From a virus, in the IMG/VR virus record IMGVR_UViG_3300045988_154892: DNA of 64,000 nt, one strand, 5' to 3'. A model generated the notes under the pieces. It saw only the letters and a program-made list of their open reading frames with translations. It did no database searches and was not told the origin of the DNA. Position 1 is the stretch's first letter; the number at the start of each line of letters is the position of its first letter. The position numbers were made by a program, and so were the translations under genes. Below are positions 2,517 through 59,942 of this stretch, piece by piece.

Positions 2517-3242
2517 ATGAAAACTCAAATTAGAATGGGTGTGTTTGAGACAAATTCATCAAGTATGCATTCGCTTTGCGTGATGAAAAATGAAGGTAAA
2601 TATACTCCACAAGAAATTACTCATGATATGTGGTTATGGGATGATTCAAAAACAGGAGAGAAAAATTGTATTTGGAGACCATATGAGGAAGATTTATATT
2701 TTGGAAGATCTCCATTTAGGGCATTAGCAAGTTTTTCTGATAAATGGCTATATGCTTGTGCTTCGTTGGTTGAAGAATATAATGATGATACATATAAAGA
2801 ATTATTACGAATTGTTAAGAAATATGTGCCGACATTAAAGAAAATTGAACTTCCAGAAAAATGTAAATATATTCCGAATAAAGATAACGAAGAATATAAT
2901 GCAGACAATTATTACCAGGAAGGAATGACGGAAGAAGAGTTAAACAAGTTTCTTTCTGACAAAGAAGAACAATATGGAATTGAAATTAATTATTGGACTG
3001 ATTCAGAAAATGAATCCTGGAGATTCAATATTCCAGATACTGGTTCTGTGGATGAAGATATCCTTAGTGGATTTTTAAAAAAAGAGAATATCACATTAGA
3101 AGAGTTTATTTCTAACAAAAAATATGTAGTAATTCAGGATGGAGATGAAACATGCTATTTTTCTGGAATGAAAGAAGTAGGTTTAATCAATATGGATGCA
3201 ATTGATCATGAATATCCAGAAGGGGAATGGTGGGAAAGATGA
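2517..3242 (+). CDS. hypothetical protein, FETNSSS-motif family (paralog A)
   Basis: MKTQIRMGVFETNSSSMHS N-terminus is shared with the next ORF. SD AGGAGAAAAGG. Confidence 0.7.
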   Translation: MKTQIRMGVFETNSSSMHSLCVMKNEGKYTPQEITHDMWLWDDSKTGEKNCIWRPYEEDLYFGRSPFRALASFSDKWLYACASLVEEYNDDTYKELLRIVKKYVPTLKKIELPEKCKYIPNKDNEEYNADNYYQEGMTEEELNKFLSDKEEQYGIEINYWTDSENESWRFNIPDTGSVDEDILSGFLKKENITLEEFISNKKYVVIQDGDETCYFSGMKEVGLINMDAIDHEYPEGEWWER

Positions 3243-9812: not shown

Positions 9813-9913
9813 ATAATATAAGAACCGTAGGAACTACGGGGATAGCTCGGTGATACTTAACTCAATGGAGTTATTGACCGAGAACCCTGCGACTTTAGTC
9901 GTGGGAGGTTCAG
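9813..9913 (+). ncRNA. 3' part of predicted omega/reRNA scaffold (probably starts inside the tnpB 3' end)
   Basis: Hairpins CCGTAG-gaa-CTACGG (9825-9839), CTCGGT...ACCGAG (9846-9882) and CCTGCGAC-ttta-GTCGTGGG (9886-9905) directly after the tnpB stop. Confidence 0.5.
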
Positions 9914-10172
9914 AATTAAAGATATAGATAAAATTGTATTATACACAACTACAAAAGACGTTAAAACAGGTGAAGAAAGTGAAATACAAATTGATATTAC
10001 AAATTGTCATGATGCAGCAATTACTATAGATAAATGGGAAGAATTGAATATCAAAAAAATGAGGAATGAAATGAAAAAGAAAATATCTATTGAATGTTTA
10101 AATTATAATATGGAATTTAAAAAAGATGATAATAAGAATAATTTTCTTACATATATGTGGGAAAATAAGTAA

Positions 10173-30904: not shown

Positions 30905-31664
30905 CAAACTTTTTGGAAAAAAGACTTCAACAACAAATACTATGGCGGATAATACATCCGCTGTGGTACATGAAGAAAATGCAGCGCAGCCAGTTGTAAT
31001 TGACATGTCTAAGTCAGCAGAAAATCTAAATAATGTGCTAATTAATATGTCGAAATCAAGCAAGATTGATATGACCAAGCATCAAGCAAGGGTTGCGCTC
31101 GCTATGGACTATTCTGGAAGTATGGGTAATCTTTTTGGAAACGGATCTGTACAAGATGTAATTACAAGACTTTTGCCAATCGCTCTTAAATTTGATGATG
31201 ATGGTAAGTTAGAATCTTGGCTATTTTCAAATGATTTTGATTTTCTGAAACCAGTGACAATTGATAATTATAAGAACTATGTTCGAAAAATTATGATGAA
31301 TTCTCGTATGAGCATGGGTGGAACTAATTACGCTCCAGTCTTGAAAGATATTGTTTCCTATTATAAGGACATTGAGCCAAGTACAATTCCAGCATTTATC
31401 ATTTTTATTACAGATGGTGAAAATTGGGATACAGACGAAACAAATAAAATTGTGAGAGAGCTTTCTAATTACAATATGTTTGTACAGTTTGTTGGCATTG
31501 GAAATGAGAATTTTAGTTATCTGAGATCTCTGGATGATATGAAGGGTAGAAAATGTGACAACACTGGATTTATCGCAGTCAAAAACATGAATAGAATGAT
31601 TGACGAAGAACTATATACAGAGCTTTTGAGACCATACAAAGATTGGCTAAATAACAAACAGTAA
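30891..31664 (+). CDS. vWA domain protein (TerF C-terminal-like)
   Basis: MIDAS AMDYSGSMG, FIIFITDGEN. ATG overlaps the ATPase 3' end by 14 nt. Confidence 0.8.
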   Translation: MGLFDKLFGKKTSTTNTMADNTSAVVHEENAAQPVVIDMSKSAENLNNVLINMSKSSKIDMTKHQARVALAMDYSGSMGNLFGNGSVQDVITRLLPIALKFDDDGKLESWLFSNDFDFLKPVTIDNYKNYVRKIMMNSRMSMGGTNYAPVLKDIVSYYKDIEPSTIPAFIIFITDGENWDTDETNKIVRELSNYNMFVQFVGIGNENFSYLRSLDDMKGRKCDNTGFIAVKNMNRMIDEELYTELLRPYKDWLNNKQ

Positions 31665-34006: not shown

Positions 34007-34162
34007 AGAATAAATAATTGTCCAAGCATGAAAGACATAAAACTTATCATGTATCGCAATACAAGCTTCCACTTGTAATAAACTGATCACTTAAGCGATG
34101 GGTTTGGATCAGCATCCTTGTTAGGAAACATCCTAAACTGATGAAGCAACTATCGCACACAT

Positions 34163-34243
34163 GCTGGCGTGGCGGAATTGGTATACGCACTGGCTTCAAA
34201 TACCAGGATCACAGATATGTGGGTTCGAGTCCCACCGTCAGTA
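34163..34243 (+). tRNA. tRNA-Leu (anticodon CAA), class II with long variable arm
   Basis: Acceptor GCTGGCG/CGTCAGT (two G-T pairs). D arm GCGGAATTGGTATACGC. Anticodon loop TTCAAAT (CAA at 34197-34199; 31-39 C/A mismatch). T arm GTGGG-TTCGAGT-CCCAC. No encoded CCA. Confidence 0.8.
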
Positions 34244-34247
34244 TTTA

Positions 34248-34394
34248 GCACCATGAAGTATGCAACTTTGTTTAGTTGGAAGTAAAAGAATATCGCAACA
34301 CAAAAATCGTATGTTTTGTGTAACTAAATGCAGCGAAAAGGTATTATGAAAGGCTAATTCATTGGAGGTCGTGCATGGCTTCGCTTCATGGTGC
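34248..34394 (+). ncRNA. structured inter-tRNA spacer closed by an 11-bp long-range helix
   Basis: GCACCATGAAG (34248-34258) pairs with CTTCATGGTGC (34384-34394). Internal hairpins include ACACAAAA/TTTTGTGT. Confidence 0.3.
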
Positions 34395-34399
34395 GATCA

Positions 34400-34473
34400 G
34401 GATCATTAGTTCAGTAGGTTAGAACGCCCAGCTCATAACTGGGAAGTCACTGGTTCAAGTCCAGTATGATCCA
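34400..34473 (+). tRNA. tRNA-Met or tRNA-Ile2 (anticodon CAT), elongator type
   Basis: Perfect cloverleaf: GGATCAT/ATGATCC, D arm GTTC-AGTAGGTTA-GAAC, anticodon arm CCCAG-CTCATAA-CTGGG, T arm ACTGG-TTCAAGT-CCAGT. Confidence 0.9.
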
Positions 34474-34563
34474 CTTTACTTTTCTGAAGGAATATAATGG
34501 ATGATTGTATCATTTGACTTGATGAAAAGTTAATTTCATAAGTTTTAAAGAAAGGAAGTAGTT

Positions 34564-36000: not shown

Positions 36001-36224
36001 TCTAGGCTATTCAGCCGATAAATTCCAAATTTTCAAATATTTTCGAAAACAGAATAGATAAATTTTGAGGTGGCTAACAGCATACCTTGGGTTTGTGCGC
36101 CCTGAATCACTGTTTACATAGTTAAACATAGATTTAATTCTGTGTTCCGTCCATGTATTGGGCGTTAAAATAGATTGTTTTATTTAACAATAATATAAAT
36201 TTTAATTTTAGGAGGACAAAAATT

Positions 36225-50155: not shown

Positions 50156-50159
50156 ATAA

Positions 50160-50316
50160 TGTGTGGTGGCGGAATATGTAGACGCTAATGACAGATAGGT
50201 TGCTCTAACGGTTCAATTCCGTCGGTATCTGAAACAGTGAAATAGCTGATGATACTGGGTCTGATTAGGCAGAAGGGTGTGAGTAGCTATGTATGGTGAA
50301 AATCCATACCCACATA
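50160..50316 (+). ncRNA. aberrant tRNA-like RNA (~157 nt) without a recognisable anticodon arm
   Basis: Acceptor-like TGTGTGG (50160-66) pairs with CCACATA (50310-16). Class-II-like D arm GCGGAATATGTAGACGC. Internal canonical T arm ACGG-TTCAATT-CCGT (50208-22) inside stem CAGATA/TATCTG. Second T-like arm GTATGG-TGAAAAT-CCATAC (50291-309). Confidence 0.4.
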
Positions 50317-50348
50317 TTATAGAAAAATTGAAAGGAAGAAACTAAAAG

Positions 50349-55512: not shown

Positions 55513-56247
55513 TTGAAATACATGGGATCAAAATCTCGAATATCGAAATATATAATTCCGATTATTCAAAAGAGGATAAAAGATTATAATATAAAAACGT
55601 ACATAGAGCCGTTCTGTGGTGGATGTAATATTGTTGATAAGATTCAATGTGATACGAAGATTGCATCCGATAATCATAAGTATCTTATAGAAATGTTCAA
55701 GAATCTAAATCAGATTCAAAGACTTCCAGAGTTTATTACAAAAGAACACTATTCAAATGTAAGAGAATGTTTTAATAAAGGTTTAACTACATATCCAGAT
55801 TGGTATATTGGAGCTATTGGTTTTCTTGCAAGTTACAATGGACGCTTTTTCGATGGCGGATACTCAGGTATTGTACATACAAAAGCTGGAACTGAGAGAA
55901 ATTATTATGATGAAGCAAGAAGAAATTTATTAATGCAGATTTCACAGTTAAAAGACATACAGTTCCAATATGGAGATTATGAAGAATTGTATTCAGATAA
56001 AATTGATTGTTTACTTTACTGTGATATTCCATATTACGGGGTAAAACAATATGGTACAAGCAAAAACTTTGATTATGATAGATTTTGGAATTGGGCTGAA
56101 AAAATGAGCGAAAAGAATATTATTCTGGTTAGTGAACATAAAGCACCTTCAGGATGGGATTGTATTTGGGAACAGGAAGTAAAAAGAACAATTGATAATA
56201 ACAAGCGTGTAAAAGCAGTAGAAAAATTATTTGAGATAAGAGAATAA
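55513..56247 (+). CDS. dam: DNA N6-adenine methyltransferase (D12 class, Dam/T4 Dam-like)
   Basis: KYMGSKS, EPFCGGCN (FxGxG), CDIPYY (DPPY-like). Start uncertain: no SD before TTG 55513, and the SD AAGGAG at 55457-62 serves another frame. Confidence 0.8.
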   Translation: MKYMGSKSRISKYIIPIIQKRIKDYNIKTYIEPFCGGCNIVDKIQCDTKIASDNHKYLIEMFKNLNQIQRLPEFITKEHYSNVRECFNKGLTTYPDWYIGAIGFLASYNGRFFDGGYSGIVHTKAGTERNYYDEARRNLLMQISQLKDIQFQYGDYEELYSDKIDCLLYCDIPYYGVKQYGTSKNFDYDRFWNWAEKMSEKNIILVSEHKAPSGWDCIWEQEVKRTIDNNKRVKAVEKLFEIRE

Positions 56248-56269: not shown

Positions 56270-56593
56270 ATGAAGATATCAGAATTACAAGCAGTTTGTA
56301 AGTACGATGACAGTGAAATGGAAGAAGTTAAAAACTGCCATCCAAAACAGATTGCAAGTGAAGTAATTCCTATTCCAACTTGGAAGATTAAATATAAGTA
56401 TACAACTGCTCGTGGAAATCCAAAAGAAGCAGTAAAGTATATGTTCTTAGATAAGAATGCCTGGGATTCTGTCGATCAGGAATTCATGAATTATATAAAA
56501 GAACTTAATGAAAAACATCCGGAAAGAATAGCATCAAACGTAGAAATTCTTGACGCAGTTTATTTCGGAAAACTTTATTTAGAACTTGAATAA
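56270..56593 (+). CDS. hypothetical protein, module small ORF copy 1
   Basis: KNCHPKQIASEVIPIPTWKIKYKYTTARGNPKEAVKYMFLD aligns with KNVHPKNFLKTKITLPVYKVNLSYLTEKGNYKTVDRYAVMD of 58099-58455. Confidence 0.6.
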   Translation: MKISELQAVCKYDDSEMEEVKNCHPKQIASEVIPIPTWKIKYKYTTARGNPKEAVKYMFLDKNAWDSVDQEFMNYIKELNEKHPERIASNVEILDAVYFGKLYLELE

Positions 56594-56788
56594 TAAATAT
56601 TTTTCAATTGTAATCAAATCCCTGTAATCAGGGTTGTATAGCGAGATGGCTTGTATTACCCATGCAGCATAGTGACATGAGGTTAAAACGTAAAATCTTA
56701 CACCATGACCTAAAATAATTGGTTTCTAAGCATAAGATAGACTCCTTTAACTAATTGGTAAAATCCAAAAGTTAAAGGAAGATTACAA
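56594..56788 (+). promoter_or_regulatory. ~195-nt structured leader 1, SD-sequestering hairpin
   Basis: Hairpin CCCTG-taat-CAGGG then GTTGT. AGTGAC...CGTAAAA...ACACC...TAAAAT block. CCTTTAACT (56744-52) pairs with AGTTAAAGG (56770-78), which covers the SD. Confidence 0.45.
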
Positions 56789-57835
56789 TTGAATCCGATA
56801 TTCAATGAATATATCAAATTTTTAAGAGACACTTTTGGAGAAGAATTACCTTATTTAAAAGAAGGATTCTTTTGGCTTGATAAACAGATTATAAAAGGCT
56901 TTGATAGTCAACTTGTAGAACATAAATTTTACAGAGTTAAAGTATCAGATAACCTAAAAAAAGTAGAAATTCTAAAATTAAAATCTTATGAAGATCCATC
57001 TGAAGTTGACATAATAAATTGGAATACGATGGTTAGCATCAAAGAGAATCAATTGATAGAACTTGAGCATGAATCCTTATATCTGATACGTGAGAAAATC
57101 AAAGACTATAATGCATATACTCCAATAATACCTGTTTCTATGGGTAAAGATTCTATGGTTACATGTCATTTAGTTCGAAAACTATATCCAAACACAAAAG
57201 CAATATTCAATAATACATCACTTGACTGTGCTGATACATATAAGATGGTTAAACGATTTCCGAATTGCGAAATTATGAATCCAGACAAAGGATTTTATCA
57301 ATATGTAAAATCTGATTCTATGATTCCGTCAAGATTTTCAAGATTCTGTTGTAGGATTTTTAAAGTTGGAGTTATGGTTTCTCAGCTTGATAATAAGCAT
57401 CCGTATTTAATTTTTATGGGAATGAGAAATGAAGAATCAAACACAAGAAGCAATTATCAAGATGAATGGGTTAATACTTCCGAATGGGGAGACACATGTT
57501 GGCAAGGAATACTTCCTATTAGAAAGTGGACAGAGTTAGATGTTTGGCTTTATACATTTTGGAGAGATATTGAAGTCAATTCAAAATATAAAAAAGGATA
57601 TTCAAGAGTTGGATGCCATTGTGCTTGTCCGTATTATGCGAAGTCAACATGGATTCTTGATAAATATTGGTATCCAAAAGCATATAAAAGATGGAGAGAT
57701 ATTCTAAGAGAAGATTTTATTAACAATCAGAAATGGCTGATTATGAATTGCACTATCAAAGAGTATCTTACTCAAGCATGGAATGGTGGTGTGTTTAGAA
57801 GTGAGCCACACAAGAAGTTATTGATGAATTTGTAG
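56789..57835 (+). CDS. PAPS-reductase-like PP-loop ATPase, copy 1
   Basis: PVSMGKDSMV, FCCRIFK, GCHCACPYY. TTG start. The reading frame appears to continue in the -1 frame to 58068. Confidence 0.8.
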   Translation: MNPIFNEYIKFLRDTFGEELPYLKEGFFWLDKQIIKGFDSQLVEHKFYRVKVSDNLKKVEILKLKSYEDPSEVDIINWNTMVSIKENQLIELEHESLYLIREKIKDYNAYTPIIPVSMGKDSMVTCHLVRKLYPNTKAIFNNTSLDCADTYKMVKRFPNCEIMNPDKGFYQYVKSDSMIPSRFSRFCCRIFKVGVMVSQLDNKHPYLIFMGMRNEESNTRSNYQDEWVNTSEWGDTCWQGILPIRKWTELDVWLYTFWRDIEVNSKYKKGYSRVGCHCACPYYAKSTWILDKYWYPKAYKRWRDILREDFINNQKWLIMNCTIKEYLTQAWNGGVFRSEPHKKLLMNL

Positions 57836-58068
57836 AACATACAGGAATTGATAAACAGATTGCGCTGCAATATTTTAATAAGAAATGTTGTGAGTGCAAT
57901 AAGAGAATAAAACATAAGGAAGTTCTTTCAATGAACTTAAAAATACATGGAAGACAAGTTAATAAATTCTATTGTAAGAAATGTTTGATGAAAGAATTCG
58001 ATTGGACAAAAGAAGATTGGGACAAACAGGTGGAAGCGTTTAAGGCTCAAGGTTGTGCGTTGTTCTAG
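57805..58068 (+). other. -1 frame continuation encoding a zinc ribbon (no own start codon)
   Basis: ATQEVIDEFVEHTGIDKQIALQYFNKKCCECNKRI...FYCKKCLMKEFDWTKEDWDKQVEAFKAQGCALF, open from 57805. Confidence 0.5.
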
Positions 58069-58098
58069 GTTTTATTGGTAGAAAGGTGGTGAAAAGTA

Positions 58099-58455
58099 GT
58101 GCATCCGAGTGAGTTTTTTAAGAATTGTTCTCTAAGGACAGGAATTGATATATTTGAAATCTACGATACAGATTTAAAAGAAAAATTAAAAAATGTGCAT
58201 CCAAAGAATTTCCTGAAAACAAAAATTACATTGCCAGTATATAAAGTCAATTTATCTTATCTTACAGAAAAAGGTAATTACAAAACAGTTGACAGATATG
58301 CGGTAATGGATTCAAGTGCAGATGATGAGTATTTTGATTTCTGGCTCGATATGTTTATGAGAGATTATAATAATGATAATCCAAATCACAAGATGATAAA
58401 TTGTGAAATAAACAACATAGAAAGACTTTGCGAAGCTGTACTACCAATTGGTTAG
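58099..58455 (+). CDS. hypothetical protein, module small ORF copy 2
   Basis: Paralog of 56270-56593. GTG after GGTGGTG. Confidence 0.6.
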   Translation: MHPSEFFKNCSLRTGIDIFEIYDTDLKEKLKNVHPKNFLKTKITLPVYKVNLSYLTEKGNYKTVDRYAVMDSSADDEYFDFWLDMFMRDYNNDNPNHKMINCEINNIERLCEAVLPIG

Positions 58456-58662
58456 CTTTTCACCATATGTATTTAATACCTTTGTGCAGCAAAGGTTGTC
58501 ACGATGATTTATAGAAGACGGATCATTGGTTAATATAAATCGAAAAAGCAATGTGGTAGTGACGTAAAAAGACACCCACGATAAAAATGAATAAGTCTCA
58601 TTTTTAAAGAGTATGGCTTTACCTCATTGAAATGAAATAATTTTCAGTGAGGAAAGTACATA
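58456..58662 (+). promoter_or_regulatory. ~205-nt structured leader 2, SD-sequestering hairpin
   Basis: Hairpin ACCTTTG-tgcag-CAAAGGT then TGT. AGTGACGTAAAAAGACACCCACGATAAAAAT. About 15-bp stem, 58617-32 with 58641-56, covers the SD GAGGAAAG. Confidence 0.45.
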
Positions 58663-59676
58663 TTGGTACAGAAAGCTAATACAATTGAGGAACTATTAAA
58701 TGATTGTCCTGTAAATCAAACGATTTGTGACAACTTAATTCGTGCATGGGTAATTATTAATAATACAAAATATAAGAAAATCATTTGTTCAATCTCAGGC
58801 GGTTCTGACAGTGATGTAATGTTAGATATCGTTTGGAGATGTGACAAAGATAATAAAGTAGATTATGTGTGGTTTGATACTGGACTGGAATATCAAGCAA
58901 CAAAAGATCATTTGAAATTTCTTGAAGGAAAATACGATATTGCATTTCATTCTTACAAGGCTATAAAACCTATTCCTACATCTTGCAAGGAATATGGACA
59001 ACCATTCTTATCAAAACAAGTCAGTGAATTTATCCAAAGATTACAAAAGTATAACTTTCAATGGGAAGATGAAGATTTTGACACATTATATAAGAAATAT
59101 CTAAAATGTAAGTCTGCCTTGGAATGGTGGTGTTGCAGCAAAGGTAACGACAGTTGTTTCAATATTACAAGAAACAAATGGTTGAAAGAATTTATGATTG
59201 CAAATCCTCCAACGTTTAATATTTCAAACAAGTGTTGTAAATATGCAAAGAAAAATGTTGCGCATAACATTGTAAAGTATGGAATAGATGGCAAATTATT
59301 TGACTTACAGATTATAGGTATCAGGAAAGCTGAAGGTGGTGCTAGATCAACAGCATACAAATCATGCTTTGATGATAATAACGACATTGACAATTATAGA
59401 CCTTTGTTCTGGTATAAAAATTCAGATAAAGAAGATTATGAGAAAGCATATGGAATTATTCATAGTGATTGTTACTTGGAATATGGTTTAAAACGTACAG
59501 GATGTTGTGGTTGTCCTTATGGAAGAGATTTTGAGAATGAATTAGATGTAATTGAGAAGTATGAACCTAAACTATATAAAGCAGTAACGAATATTTTCAA
59601 AGATTCTTATGAATATACAAGAAAGTACGTGGAGTTTAGAAAAATGATGGATGAGAAGGAGAGAATCAAACAATGA
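58663..59676 (+). CDS. PAPS-reductase-like PP-loop ATPase, copy 2
   Basis: SISGGSDSDV (SGGxDS), KCCKYAKK, GCCGCPYG. TTG start. Confidence 0.8.
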   Translation: MVQKANTIEELLNDCPVNQTICDNLIRAWVIINNTKYKKIICSISGGSDSDVMLDIVWRCDKDNKVDYVWFDTGLEYQATKDHLKFLEGKYDIAFHSYKAIKPIPTSCKEYGQPFLSKQVSEFIQRLQKYNFQWEDEDFDTLYKKYLKCKSALEWWCCSKGNDSCFNITRNKWLKEFMIANPPTFNISNKCCKYAKKNVAHNIVKYGIDGKLFDLQIIGIRKAEGGARSTAYKSCFDDNNDIDNYRPLFWYKNSDKEDYEKAYGIIHSDCYLEYGLKRTGCCGCPYGRDFENELDVIEKYEPKLYKAVTNIFKDSYEYTRKYVEFRKMMDEKERIKQ

Positions 59677-59942
59677 GAATATTAGCAGTACATAATGACC
59701 ATATAAAGAAACCAGATCCAGAAAGAAAGTATGGTTGTGTTTGTAACAAATGTGGTACAGTATTTATTTTTGCAAGGTCTGAAGCTTGTATTCCAAGATG
59801 TATTAACCCAAAACCTAGTCAATGCACAGTTAGATGTCCAAATTCTAGTTGTCAGAACGTTATGACATTTGATTTGTGTAAGGAATTAAAAACTCTTACA
59901 GATGAGAATGATTTTTGCGATTTCTATGCAGATGATAAATAA
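59673..59942 (+). CDS. zinc-ribbon protein coupled to PP-loop ATPase copy 2
   Basis: ATGA overlap. CVCNKCG...CPNSSC. Confidence 0.6.
   Translation: MRILAVHNDHIKKPDPERKYGCVCNKCGTVFIFARSEACIPRCINPKPSQCTVRCPNSSCQNVMTFDLCKELKTLTDENDFCDFYADDK

Follow-up and report, generated by a model that had tools for sequence, protein, structure and literature searches.

In phages, PAPS reductases are concentrated in anti-defence hotspots. DNA phosphorothioate is installed by BrxP, SspD and DndC (PMC12914056, PMC12707154). Aca2, a small phage protein, binds structured RNA and blocks the RBS, and PAPS reductases are among the Aca-regulated genes (PMC13551039).

Here we analysed a 64,000-nt stretch of an uncultivated gut phage (IMG/VR record IMGVR_UViG_3300045988_154892; hereafter the window), in which two adjoining cassettes each consist of three parts, namely a small protein gene (s), a non-coding RNA of ~180-210 nt (leader) and a gene for a PAPS-reductase-like enzyme of the [4Fe-4S] type (p). 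We propose, with a probability of roughly 0.55, that the leader switches translation in cis, is OFF by default and is probably run by s, its targets being DndC/SspD/BrxP-like and probably DNA-modifying enzymes. The s protein and the leader constitute a new protein family and a new RNA family of an already known regulatory kind. As in Aca2-type control, a small phage protein is co-operonic with a conserved structured RNA over the RBS of an anti-defence-type gene. Unlike in that system, s lacks an HTH or RHH domain (Pfam search; AF2 model), the leader is ~200 nt long, pseudoknotted, intercistronic and downstream of the putative regulator gene s, and RNA binding, shown for Aca2, is proposed for s. 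With translational riboswitches and ribosomal-protein leaders the RNA shares a multi-helix, pseudoknotted cis element, a closing helix and terminal hairpin that sequester the start codon and SD, and conservation above that of the adjacent coding sequence. However, it lies between two cistrons, always behind the s family, and has no Rfam family (Rfam 15 covariance-model search of both leaders, no match at gathering threshold, nor at E ≤ 10).

Cassette architecture

The genes and RNAs of the locus are as follows.

55513..56247, + strand: Dam-type N6-adenine DNA methyltransferase (PF02086, E 1e-12); context gene, outside the cassette
56270..56593, + strand: s1, 107 aa, new-family small protein (ORF kept at 60-99% aa identity among relatives)
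56594..56795, + strand: leader RNA type 1 (fold z-score, covariation in 21 homologues)
56789..58068, + strand: p1, Fe-S PAPS-reductase-like PP-loop enzyme with C-terminal zinc-ribbon domain (PF01507, E 9e-27)
58099..58455, + strand: s2, 118 aa, GTG start, s1 paralogue (ORF conserved among relatives)
58456..58669, + strand: leader RNA type 2 (fold z-score, covariation in 17 homologues)
58663..59676, + strand: p2, another Fe-S PAPS-reductase-like PP-loop enzyme, distantly related to p1 (PF01507, E 4e-10)
59673..59942, + strand: Cys-rich small ORF of 89 aa that overlaps the stop codon of p2; lineage-specific neighbour

The ORF coordinates agree with those of the original prediction, which was made from the sequence letters and had described a tandemly duplicated module of four parts, the fourth being a zinc ribbon. 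Our analysis leaves three. In the window, p1 is split by a 1-nt deletion after ~57808 into ORFs 56789-57835 and 57805-58068; relatives have CCAACAC at this place and the window CCACAC, one A being missing. The CxxC segment (57805-58068), formerly taken for a separate zinc ribbon in the -1 frame, is fused in frame to p1 in 46/46 related loci (…RSEPTQEVIDEF…); judged from these relatives, it is p1's own C-terminal domain and the two ORFs are one gene. A programmed -1 ribosomal frameshift from p1 into the zinc ribbon was rejected, given the continuous ORF in all of these relatives and the single A absent from the window. The 89-aa ORF behind p2 gave no match in family searches (Pfam, PHROG, NCBIfam and PADLOC models) and is not a part of the module, because a counterpart follows p2 in merely 17/94 p2 loci.

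Since p1 and p2 are ~22% identical across 154 residues and cassettes 1 and 2 are each found singly in other phages, a recent tandem duplication is ruled out, and the two cassettes are best described as old paralogues. Their non-coding gaps of 195 nt (cassette 1) and 207 nt (cassette 2), originally called exceptional, are unusual against a median inter-ORF gap of 17 nt in the window, but ~15 gaps of 150 nt or more, counted from crude ORF calls, make them less than exceptional. The Dam methylase does lie directly 5' of the cassette in the window, as had been pointed out, but this adjacency varies among relatives; a DNA methyltransferase of one of four types occurs within ±3 kb in about a quarter of the loci examined.

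PAPS-reductase-like enzymes

The assignment of both enzymes as PAPS-reductase-like was confirmed, with PF01507 scores of 94.6 bits for p1, 40.5 for p2 and 30.4 for the enzyme of locus L146 against a cut-off of 22.5, and the motifs quoted earlier are present (SMGKDS PP-loop, CC..K and GCHCACP in p1; SGGSDS PP-loop, CC..K and GCCGCP in p2). The PADLOC BrxP HMM matches p1 at E 1.5e-32 over profile positions 79-360 of 779, that is, the PAPS domain alone, while p2 and the third-subfamily enzyme p3 match the SspD/BrxP models weakly (4e-8 to 5e-7). Like DndC, SspD and BrxP, the cassette enzymes carry a PP-loop and CC…CxxC-type Cys motifs and have DNA methyltransferases in their genomic company. Unlike these, they have no DUF4007 domain (Pfam search of p1 and p2), p1 ends in a zinc-ribbon, and the DndC model is absent among their NCBIfam matches at E < 0.01. 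The cassettes also have no DndD, SspC or BrxC ATPase or cysteine desulfurase nearby; such a partner ATPase and a DNA-recognition domain (DndE, SspB or DUF4007) are missing beside p1 and p2 in the window, where 53.8-61.4 kb holds no ORF of at least 300 aa besides these two. The cassettes at related loci are flanked by methyltransferases and small ORFs.

Foldseek comparison of an AF2 model of p2 (pLDDT 80) retrieved CysH, the assimilatory APS/PAPS reductase, as top structural neighbour (E 2e-5), along with TtuA, NcsA, LarE and TilS (E 2e-5 to 1e-3), in agreement with a Rossmann-like fold. CysH shares the Pfam domain, but the cassette enzymes score far under the NCBIfam CysH cut-offs, have extra N- and C-terminal domains, and are encoded in a phage DNA-metabolism region rather than with sulfate assimilation. 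The p2 family comprises 5411 clusters, some of them in Coprococcus genomes. Based on the BrxP/SspD matches, the CysH/TtuA/LarE-like fold, the DNA methyltransferase neighbours and the phase-variable relatives, we infer that the cassette enzymes act in nucleic-acid modification. Two specificities are possible because p1 and p2 belong to very different subfamilies.

The small protein s

The predicted homology of the small ORFs holds (s1 vs s2, 30% identity, pairwise E 2e-12), as does their lack of a recognised family, with no match in Pfam, PHROG or NCBIfam searches. Clustering of the s family gives 265 clusters at 90% identity, or 213 when the threshold is 50%. In s1, the motif HPKQ…IPxWKxxYxYxTxRGNxK marks a conserved basic beta-hairpin. 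As a whole, s is slightly acidic (pI ~5.3). Its AF2 model (pLDDT 95) has an alpha-alpha-beta-beta-alpha-beta topology; a PDB search with this model returned no significant neighbour, the best (E 0.08) being faintly like ribosomal protein eL20/LX.

Leader RNAs

As predicted, the leaders are structured, both folding much more stably than shuffled sequence (z -4.5 for leader 1 and -4.4 for leader 2). Their elements are listed below.

Leader 1
56603-56615 / 56781-56793, + strand: P1, includes the TTG start at 56789
56620-24 / 56629-33, + strand: P2
56635-56677, + strand: P3 domain
56681-83 / 56702-04, + strand: pseudoknot, pair CG:11 / UA:10
56695-56700 / 56733-38, + strand: P4
56707-10 / 56721-24, + strand: P5
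56744-51 / 56771-78, + strand: SD-sequestering hairpin P6

Leader 2
58463-74 / 58654-66, + strand: P1, includes the TTG start at 58663
58478-84 / 58490-96, + strand: P2
58498-58502 / 58559-63, + strand: P3
58506-12 / 58535-41, + strand: P3a
58553-56 / 58576-79, + strand: pseudoknot, 100% paired, 2/4 pairs covary
58582-58609, + strand: optional hairpin insertion
58610-21, + strand: invariant 12-mer AGUAUGGCUUUA
58622-32 / 58642-52, + strand: SD-sequestering hairpin

Among 21 homologues of leader 1, pairing reaches 96.2% of cells, with compensatory changes at 18/50 pairs (1-6 pairs in slid controls), and among 17 homologues of leader 2 the values are 97.4% and 28/46 (5-8 pairs in slid controls), with few lineages contributing to the covariation and alignments fitted to the models in both cases. 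The pseudoknot helices lie outside the covariance models, and in both leaders they pair completely (100%) and show covariation. Numerous G·U pairs identify the sense strand as the structured one. Nucleotide identity of the leaders is equal to or above that of the flanking CDS (84-87% vs 73-77%, and 91% vs 71-80%). The model search lends weak support (12.3 bits, E 0.011 within 2 kb) to homology between leaders 1 and 2, and locus L224 carries a further pseudoknot variant of leader 2. Comparative evidence thus identifies both leaders as genuine conserved pseudoknotted RNAs.

In both leaders, P1 pairs the enzyme start codon with the stretch directly following the stop codon of s, and in every variant the 3' arm of P1 holds the start codon and that of the last hairpin (P6) the SD. 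The start codon remains inside P1 even where AUG replaces UUG (L146, L215, L220, L221), and also where the downstream codons differ among loci. The modelled probability of being paired is 0.85-0.97 at the SD and 0.5-1.0 at the start codon, and with both paired the native fold would block initiation at the enzyme gene. Together with the strong covariation in both leaders, this predicted sequestration supports the RNA-based regulation suggested originally. A search for an ON-state structure in the leaders identified none; the start region of leader 2 has two alternative partners, both inhibitory.

Synteny and distribution

Conservation of the small ORF and leader beside PAPS-reductase-like genes, the test that the original prediction had set itself, was found throughout: an s-profile search of IMG/VR gave a leader and a PAPS_reduct gene in 78/78 loci, and RNA-first searches gave s upstream and the enzyme downstream in 83/83 and 17/17 loci. 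This order spans three barely related enzyme subfamilies, the third represented at L146 and L205, and is kept with a two-domain s at L220 and a remote s at L221 (R2 score 76 bits). The type of s tracks the type of leader, and the enzyme partner changes. Orthologues of p1 and p2 are present in other phages without s or RNA, where they sit behind invertons, promoter/start segments seen in both orientations, in keeping with an accessory and regulatory role of s and the RNA. A split gene, with s as exon 1 and the leader as intron, was rejected, as neither group I nor group II introns were detected in the leaders and the enzymes begin at the same N-terminus in s-less phages.

Control of enzyme expression

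We suggest that the leader RNA acts in cis as a default-OFF switch on enzyme translation, which a trans-factor would open or lock further. The likeliest such factor would be the always co-encoded s, binding the RNA via its conserved basic beta-hairpin, and a small ligand could take its place. As relatives of DndC, SspD and BrxP, the enzymes would most probably act on phage DNA, modifying it to counter restriction. Enzyme expression would have to be tightly limited or heterogeneous, which may explain why s-less sister phages use invertible switches. Several results count against this reading: the mild acidity of s and its lack of a significant structural neighbour, the missing ON state, the small number of lineages behind the covariation with alignments fitted to the models, the weak support for homology between the leader types and, for the DNA-modification role, the absent partner ATPase, DUF4007 domain and DndC match.

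Among the alternatives, it is possible, if unlikely, that the leader is a metabolite-sensing riboswitch independent of s, and that s is a co-operonic partner subunit such as a DndE-like DNA-recognition component. In PT systems, a small protein that recognises DNA accompanies the PAPS reductase (PMC12707154), and the complex fold, with its pseudoknots and its unpaired stretches of high conservation (CGUAAAA and the 12-mer of leader 2), would suit a riboswitch, as would the overlap of the P1 3' strand with the expression platform, a typical riboswitch architecture. The association of the RNA with a single enzyme superfamily, in three of its subfamilies, would likewise be expected for a chemistry-linked ligand. 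However, the RNA always has s directly upstream, however the loci were retrieved, the subtypes of s and RNA co-vary, and neither an Rfam relative nor a candidate ligand is at hand. Riboswitches usually occupy the 5' end of an operon, whereas this RNA lies between two cistrons.

We consider it quite improbable that the RNA is a translational-coupling device, in which ribosomes ending s would melt P1, expose a weak UUG start and fix a low enzyme:s ratio. The 5' arm of P1 does begin ~0-16 nt past the s stop codon and its 3' arm carries the start codon, so that P1 brings stop and start codon side by side, and UUG is the start of most enzyme genes. When a ribosome is placed on the stop codon in the model, however, the SD is still 0.85-0.97 paired and the start codon 0.5-0.9, and the freed arm in leader 2 is predicted to re-pair with the conserved 12-mer. 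In addition, the spacing from stop codon to P1 is too variable for a fixed footprint, and ~165 nt of conserved pseudoknotted interior would be superfluous for simple coupling.

A more far-reaching proposal, likewise with long odds against it, is that s, the RNA and the Fe-S enzyme form one RNP gating DNA modification, or that s founds a new class of RNA-binding regulators. If the former were true, the RNA would act as sensor or as cofactor, licensing a DNA-modifying enzyme solely in one particular cellular or infection state, amounting to an RNA-gated DNA-modification system of phages; if the latter, s would found a class of translational regulators dedicated to this PP-loop enzyme superfamily.

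The RNA could also be a stable, functional ncRNA and not a regulator, joining s, the PP-loop enzyme or both in an RNP where it would be a scaffold, a substrate or a determinant of specificity, which we find improbable too. The leader is more conserved than the neighbouring genes, s, RNA and enzyme stay together as an obligate trio even at deep divergence, and the PP-loop relatives TtuA, NcsA and TilS work on structured RNAs. Against this, close p1 and p2 orthologues occur in phages without s and RNA, so the enzyme is independent of both, the SD and start codon are sequestered in a conserved manner, which argues for a cis role, and no guide-like hypervariable segment was seen in the leaders.

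That the gaps are DNA-level elements, either promoters/operators or segments invertible within an inverted repeat, is very improbable: a perfect 13-bp inverted repeat bounds 165 bp at 56603 / 56781 and similar-sized invertons occupy the same place in s-less relatives, but G·U wobble and compensatory changes maintain ten separate helices as well as pseudoknots, and promoter-like sites are not enriched (29 observed vs 29.0 expected). An inverton reading of the leaders in the window was also rejected, since at all leader-bearing loci the leader matches the + strand relative to the enzyme gene, in a single orientation, whereas s-less loci show both. As when gut bacteria control DNA-modification genes by phase variation through invertons, sister phages place p1 and p2 genes behind invertible segments, whereas the window relies on fixed-orientation RNA structure, without DNA inversion; invertons ahead of the same genes in sister phages point to the same need for switchable expression.

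The s1 and s2 cassettes

ORF calling bore out the coordinates of the two consecutive gene pairs in the original prediction, and the PP-loop and cysteine motifs quoted for the two enzymes are present:

56270-56593: s1, small ORF (107 aa)
56789-57835: p1, PP-loop enzyme of unit 1; PF01507 PAPS_reduct, E 9e-27; motifs SMGKDS, CC..K, GCHCACP
58099-58455: s2, small ORF (118 aa)
58663-59676: p2, PP-loop enzyme of unit 2; PF01507 PAPS_reduct, E 4e-10; motifs SGGSDS, CC..K, GCCGCP

The window has a G+C content of 32.6%, with ORFs almost all on one strand. PHROGs assigns both p1 and p2 as "phosphoadenosine phosphosulfate reductase", and the proposed homology of s1 and s2 holds (30% identity, pairwise E 2e-12). 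The non-coding gaps between s and enzyme, leader 1 (195 nt) and leader 2 (207 nt), had been called exceptional; they are unusual against a median inter-ORF gap of 17 nt, but not unique, since about 15 gaps reach 150 nt. Further long stretches without an ORF of at least 45 aa lie at 30905-31516, 1810-2170, 9813-10172, 36001-36224 and 50156-50348, and none of these is matched by R1 or R2, the covariance models of the two leaders. Both cassette enzyme genes start with TTG. The window also encodes, at 34162-34474, tRNA-Leu(CAA), a reader of UUG, and tRNA-Met(CAT).

The zinc-ribbon segments that had been counted as the fourth part of each unit do not belong to the cassette as separate genes. Protein-guided searches of IMG/VR recovered p1 relatives at 46 loci and p2 relatives at 80, on contigs of ~100-210 kb, and in all 46 p1 relatives the segment read in the -1 frame in the window is fused in frame to the p1 C-terminus (…RSEPTQEVIDEF…). 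At 57806-57811 the window reads CCACAC, against CCAACAC in the relatives; the A missing after 57808 parts p1 from its C-terminal zinc-ribbon domain. The apparent -1-frame segment is thus a 1-nt deletion in the window sequence, either a genuine mutation that would inactivate the gene or a fault of assembly, and the in-frame relatives exclude a programmed frameshift or a separate zinc-ribbon gene in unit 1. The seeming frameshifted zinc ribbon is therefore an annotation trap arising from a 1-nt indel. Of 94 loci, only 17 have a counterpart of the unit 2 ORF (59673-59942) after p2. A recent tandem duplication is also rejected, because p1 and p2 share only ~22% identity over 154 residues and many phages carry a single cassette, in differing neighbourhoods. 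The two units are old paralogues.

The s protein family

Searches with s1 and s2 gave no match in Pfam, PHROGs, NCBIfam or PADLOC. The s family forms 265 clusters at a 90% identity cut and has 213 representatives at 50%; it includes two- and three-repeat forms and never enzyme fusions. Its tandem-repeat members, of ~200-285 aa (P0137, P0140, P0153, P0215, P0254), suggest that s may act as an oligomer. The structure model (pLDDT 95) has the order alpha-alpha-beta-beta-alpha-beta and no significant structural neighbour (Foldseek against PDB, best E 0.08); the best matches (E ~0.1) were ribosomal proteins eL20/LX and the little-finger domain of Pol eta. By sequence, the best PDB match was YycI at E 0.012, and BFVD returned only the family itself. 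None of these resources gave a known family; s constitutes a new small-protein family of ~213 clusters at 50% identity. Overall, s is a mildly acidic protein, and the part of it that is best conserved is a beta-hairpin, basic and rich in aromatic residues (net charge +5), that would be compatible with nucleic-acid binding. Two distant members searched against IMG/VR gave no matches. One s2 homologue (L054, 2465-2821), with intact leader and p2, contains an in-frame stop (…TEK*NYK…) and may be a pseudogene or reflect a sequencing error.

Synteny of s, leader RNA and enzyme

The leader RNA and the s protein were found only together, and only before PAPS-reductase-like enzymes. In an s-profile search of IMG/VR, independent of the enzymes, s was followed by a leader of like orientation and then a PAPS_reduct gene in 78/78 loci, with contig ends and one locus with a truncated p1 (L145) as the only exceptions. 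RNA-first searches with short conserved core patterns, counting loci with complete flanks, found s upstream and an enzyme downstream in 83/83 type-2 and 17/17 type-1 loci. The two approaches agree: the small ORF and leader are conserved beside PP-loop genes, and a lack of such conservation had been named as grounds against the original prediction. Fifteen additional type-1 pattern matches without s or enzyme scored at most 17.8 bits with the model and were discarded as chance; they come from unrelated contigs, where they lie antisense to a conserved coding region.

The association extends beyond p1 and p2. Five loci (L146, L205-L208) have a third PAPS_reduct enzyme (p3; 252 aa, SFGKDS), scarcely alignable with p1 or p2, behind an s1-like protein and an RNA of the leader-1 type. 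Four of these (L205-L208) have the order methyltransferase, s, RNA, p3, s, RNA, p2, methyltransferase, so the tandem recurs with a different first enzyme. Elsewhere, a gap of 213 nt separates a two-domain s from a downstream PAPS_reduct gene (L220), and the RNA behind a remote s (L221) matches the leader-2 model at 76 bits. No cultured phage in INPHARED carries the cassette; the cultured Clostridium phages CS266P1-P4 encode a p2 homologue without s or leader.

Structure and conservation of the leader RNAs

Both leaders fold well below dinucleotide shuffles (z -4.5 for 195 nt, -4.4 for 207 nt), and their conserved, covarying helices and pseudoknots substantiate the earlier suggestion that they are structured RNAs. 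We assessed covariation against controls in which the 3' partners were slid; the samples cover a limited number of lineages, and helices other than the pseudoknots were aligned by means of the model. For type 1 (21 sequences aligned to R1), standard pairs occupied 96.2% of cells (26-44% when slid), compensatory changes were present in 18/50 pairs (1-6 in controls) and the covariation score was 0.209 (0.02-0.04); a MAFFT-only alignment gave the same picture. For type 2 (17 sequences aligned to R2), 97.4% of cells were paired (33-46%), 28/46 pairs were compensatory (5-8) and the score was 0.337 (0.03-0.08). The pseudoknot helices lie outside R1 and R2, hence the alignments were not fitted to them, and both are 100% paired and covarying. 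The type-1 pseudoknot is GGU/ACC or GGC/GCC (UA:10, CG:11), and the type-2 pseudoknot, GUGA/UCAC, has A-U, G-C or C-G at one pair and U-A or C-G at another, with a further GCGG/CUGU variant in one locus (L224). G·U pairs are frequent and therefore identify the sense strand. Nucleotide identity of the leaders is at least that of the flanking genes.

The leaders represent a well-supported new class of structured RNA with two pseudoknotted subtypes and more than 100 instances; neither subtype has an Rfam match at gathering scores or at E ≤ 10, which dismisses a known RNA family. Both types share the order P1, a P2 hairpin and then UUGU, P3 pairing with …AUAGUGAC, CGUAAAA, the pseudoknot and a hairpin containing the Shine-Dalgarno sequence (SD). 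This shared architecture and motif content makes common ancestry likely but not proven, as the leader-1 model scores leader 2 at only 12.3 bits (E 0.011 in 2 kb), too weak to treat the two as one established family. Leader 2 of the window contains an additional 28-nt hairpin (58582-58609) absent from most homologues. It is also present in L151-type loci, and in L205 another insertion occupies this position, which looks like a permissive RNA site.

Start-site sequestration and a proposed translational switch

In every variant, the start codon of the enzyme lies inside the 3' strand of P1, the 5' strand of which starts 0-16 nt past the s stop codon. The start codon stays in P1 where AUG replaces UUG (L146, L215, L220, L221), and where the downstream codons differ, the 5' strand is altered to match and the start codon is still paired. 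The SD pairs with a conserved anti-SD in the last leader hairpin. In partition-function models the SD is paired with a probability of 0.85-0.97 and the start codon with one of 0.5-1.0; with both paired, the folded RNA corresponds to an OFF state. With a ribosome modelled on the s stop codon these probabilities are nearly unchanged, so simple ribosome-footprint coupling does not open the RNA. In leader 2, the P1 arm freed in this model pairs with a 12-mer, AGUAUGGCUUUA (58610-58621), which is invariant in nearly all type-2 leaders and can itself pair with the 3'-strand target of P1, forming an alternative helix that is still inhibitory.

The mechanism with the best support makes the leader a default-OFF translational switch that would act in cis on DndC/SspD/BrxP-like enzymes and be tied in function to the s protein. 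Conserved structure, sequestered initiation region and strict synteny are shown, and we infer which effector (s or a ligand) operates the switch, what its ON state is and what the enzymes act on. Among other readings, an intron, with s, leader and enzyme as exon, intron and exon, is rejected because the enzymes keep their N-terminus where s is absent and no intron model matches. An inverton is rejected on the single orientation of the leader and its G·U covariation, and a promoter or terminator on the lack of enrichment.

A small phage protein, Aca2, binds structured RNA and blocks an RBS (PMC13551039), which provides a precedent for such control. The RNA-protein-enzyme cassette is real and apparently undescribed, a new family of a known regulatory kind; our literature search, with the candidate lists of large RNA catalogues outside its scope, found no paper on this RNA or s protein.

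Invertons in relatives without s

Relatives of p1 that lack s and leader carry an intragenic inverton of ~296 bp, which spans the sequence upstream of p1 together with its first 58 codons and is bounded by 13-14-bp inverted repeats (TGAAAGATTGGATT). Its copies in different phages are exact reverse complements (L016 ~2872-3181 versus L027 2704-3013), forward in 18 loci and inverted in 10; the OFF form provides an alternative short N-terminus. In p2 relatives without s, an inverton of ~157 bp ends at the p2 start and holds a promoter-like region, an RBS, the start codon and the first five p2 codons between AAATAGTATTTT and AAAATACTA, again in both orientations (L114 versus L118, L055 versus L078). 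None of the s-profile matches lies in an inverton-bearing contig, and the p2 homologue of phages CS266P1-P4 has no upstream control region of these kinds.

The enzymes evidently function without s or RNA, which argues that the additional parts of the cassette are regulatory. The RNA/protein device and the invertons both point to switchable or limited enzyme expression, and the investment of phages in either argues that this expression is costly or must be heterogeneous.

Enzymes, genomic context and hosts

The PADLOC BrxP model matches p1 (E 1.5e-32) across the PAPS domain only, and p2 and p3 match the BrxP and SspD models weakly. The p2 structure model (pLDDT 80) is similar to CysH and to three Fe-S sulfurtransferases, TtuA, NcsA and LarE. 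In APS reductase-type enzymes, the CC…CxxC arrangement supplies the Fe-S ligands. DNA phosphorothioate is installed by BrxP, SspD and DndC, which work with an ATPase and a component that recognises DNA (PMC12914056, PMC12707154). The window ORFs near p1 and p2 include neither of these partners, and membership in these systems is therefore not established. DNA methyltransferases (Dam, N6_N4, Dcm) recurrently adjoin the cassettes, and one study lists phage PAPS reductases among genes of anti-defence hotspots (PMC13551039). A role in anti-restriction DNA modification is suspected for phage PAPS reductases, and the cassette offers a handle on these common but uncharacterised enzymes, of interest to both phage anti-defence biology and RNA discovery. 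The presence of p2 relatives in Coprococcus genomes points to Lachnospiraceae hosts.

Some p1 genes are interrupted or reduced. In L145 (3522-4430), p1 is reduced to 79 aa behind an intact s1 and leader 1, with unrelated small ORFs in place of the remainder and an intact s2-leader-p2 cassette thereafter. In L037 (3853-4970), and likewise in L041 and L042, a ~1.1-kb insertion splits p1 at the conserved RxGC…C motif; it encodes a GIY-YIG-type homing endonuclease and matches the group I intron model below threshold (RF00028, E 2e-4 and 1e-3).
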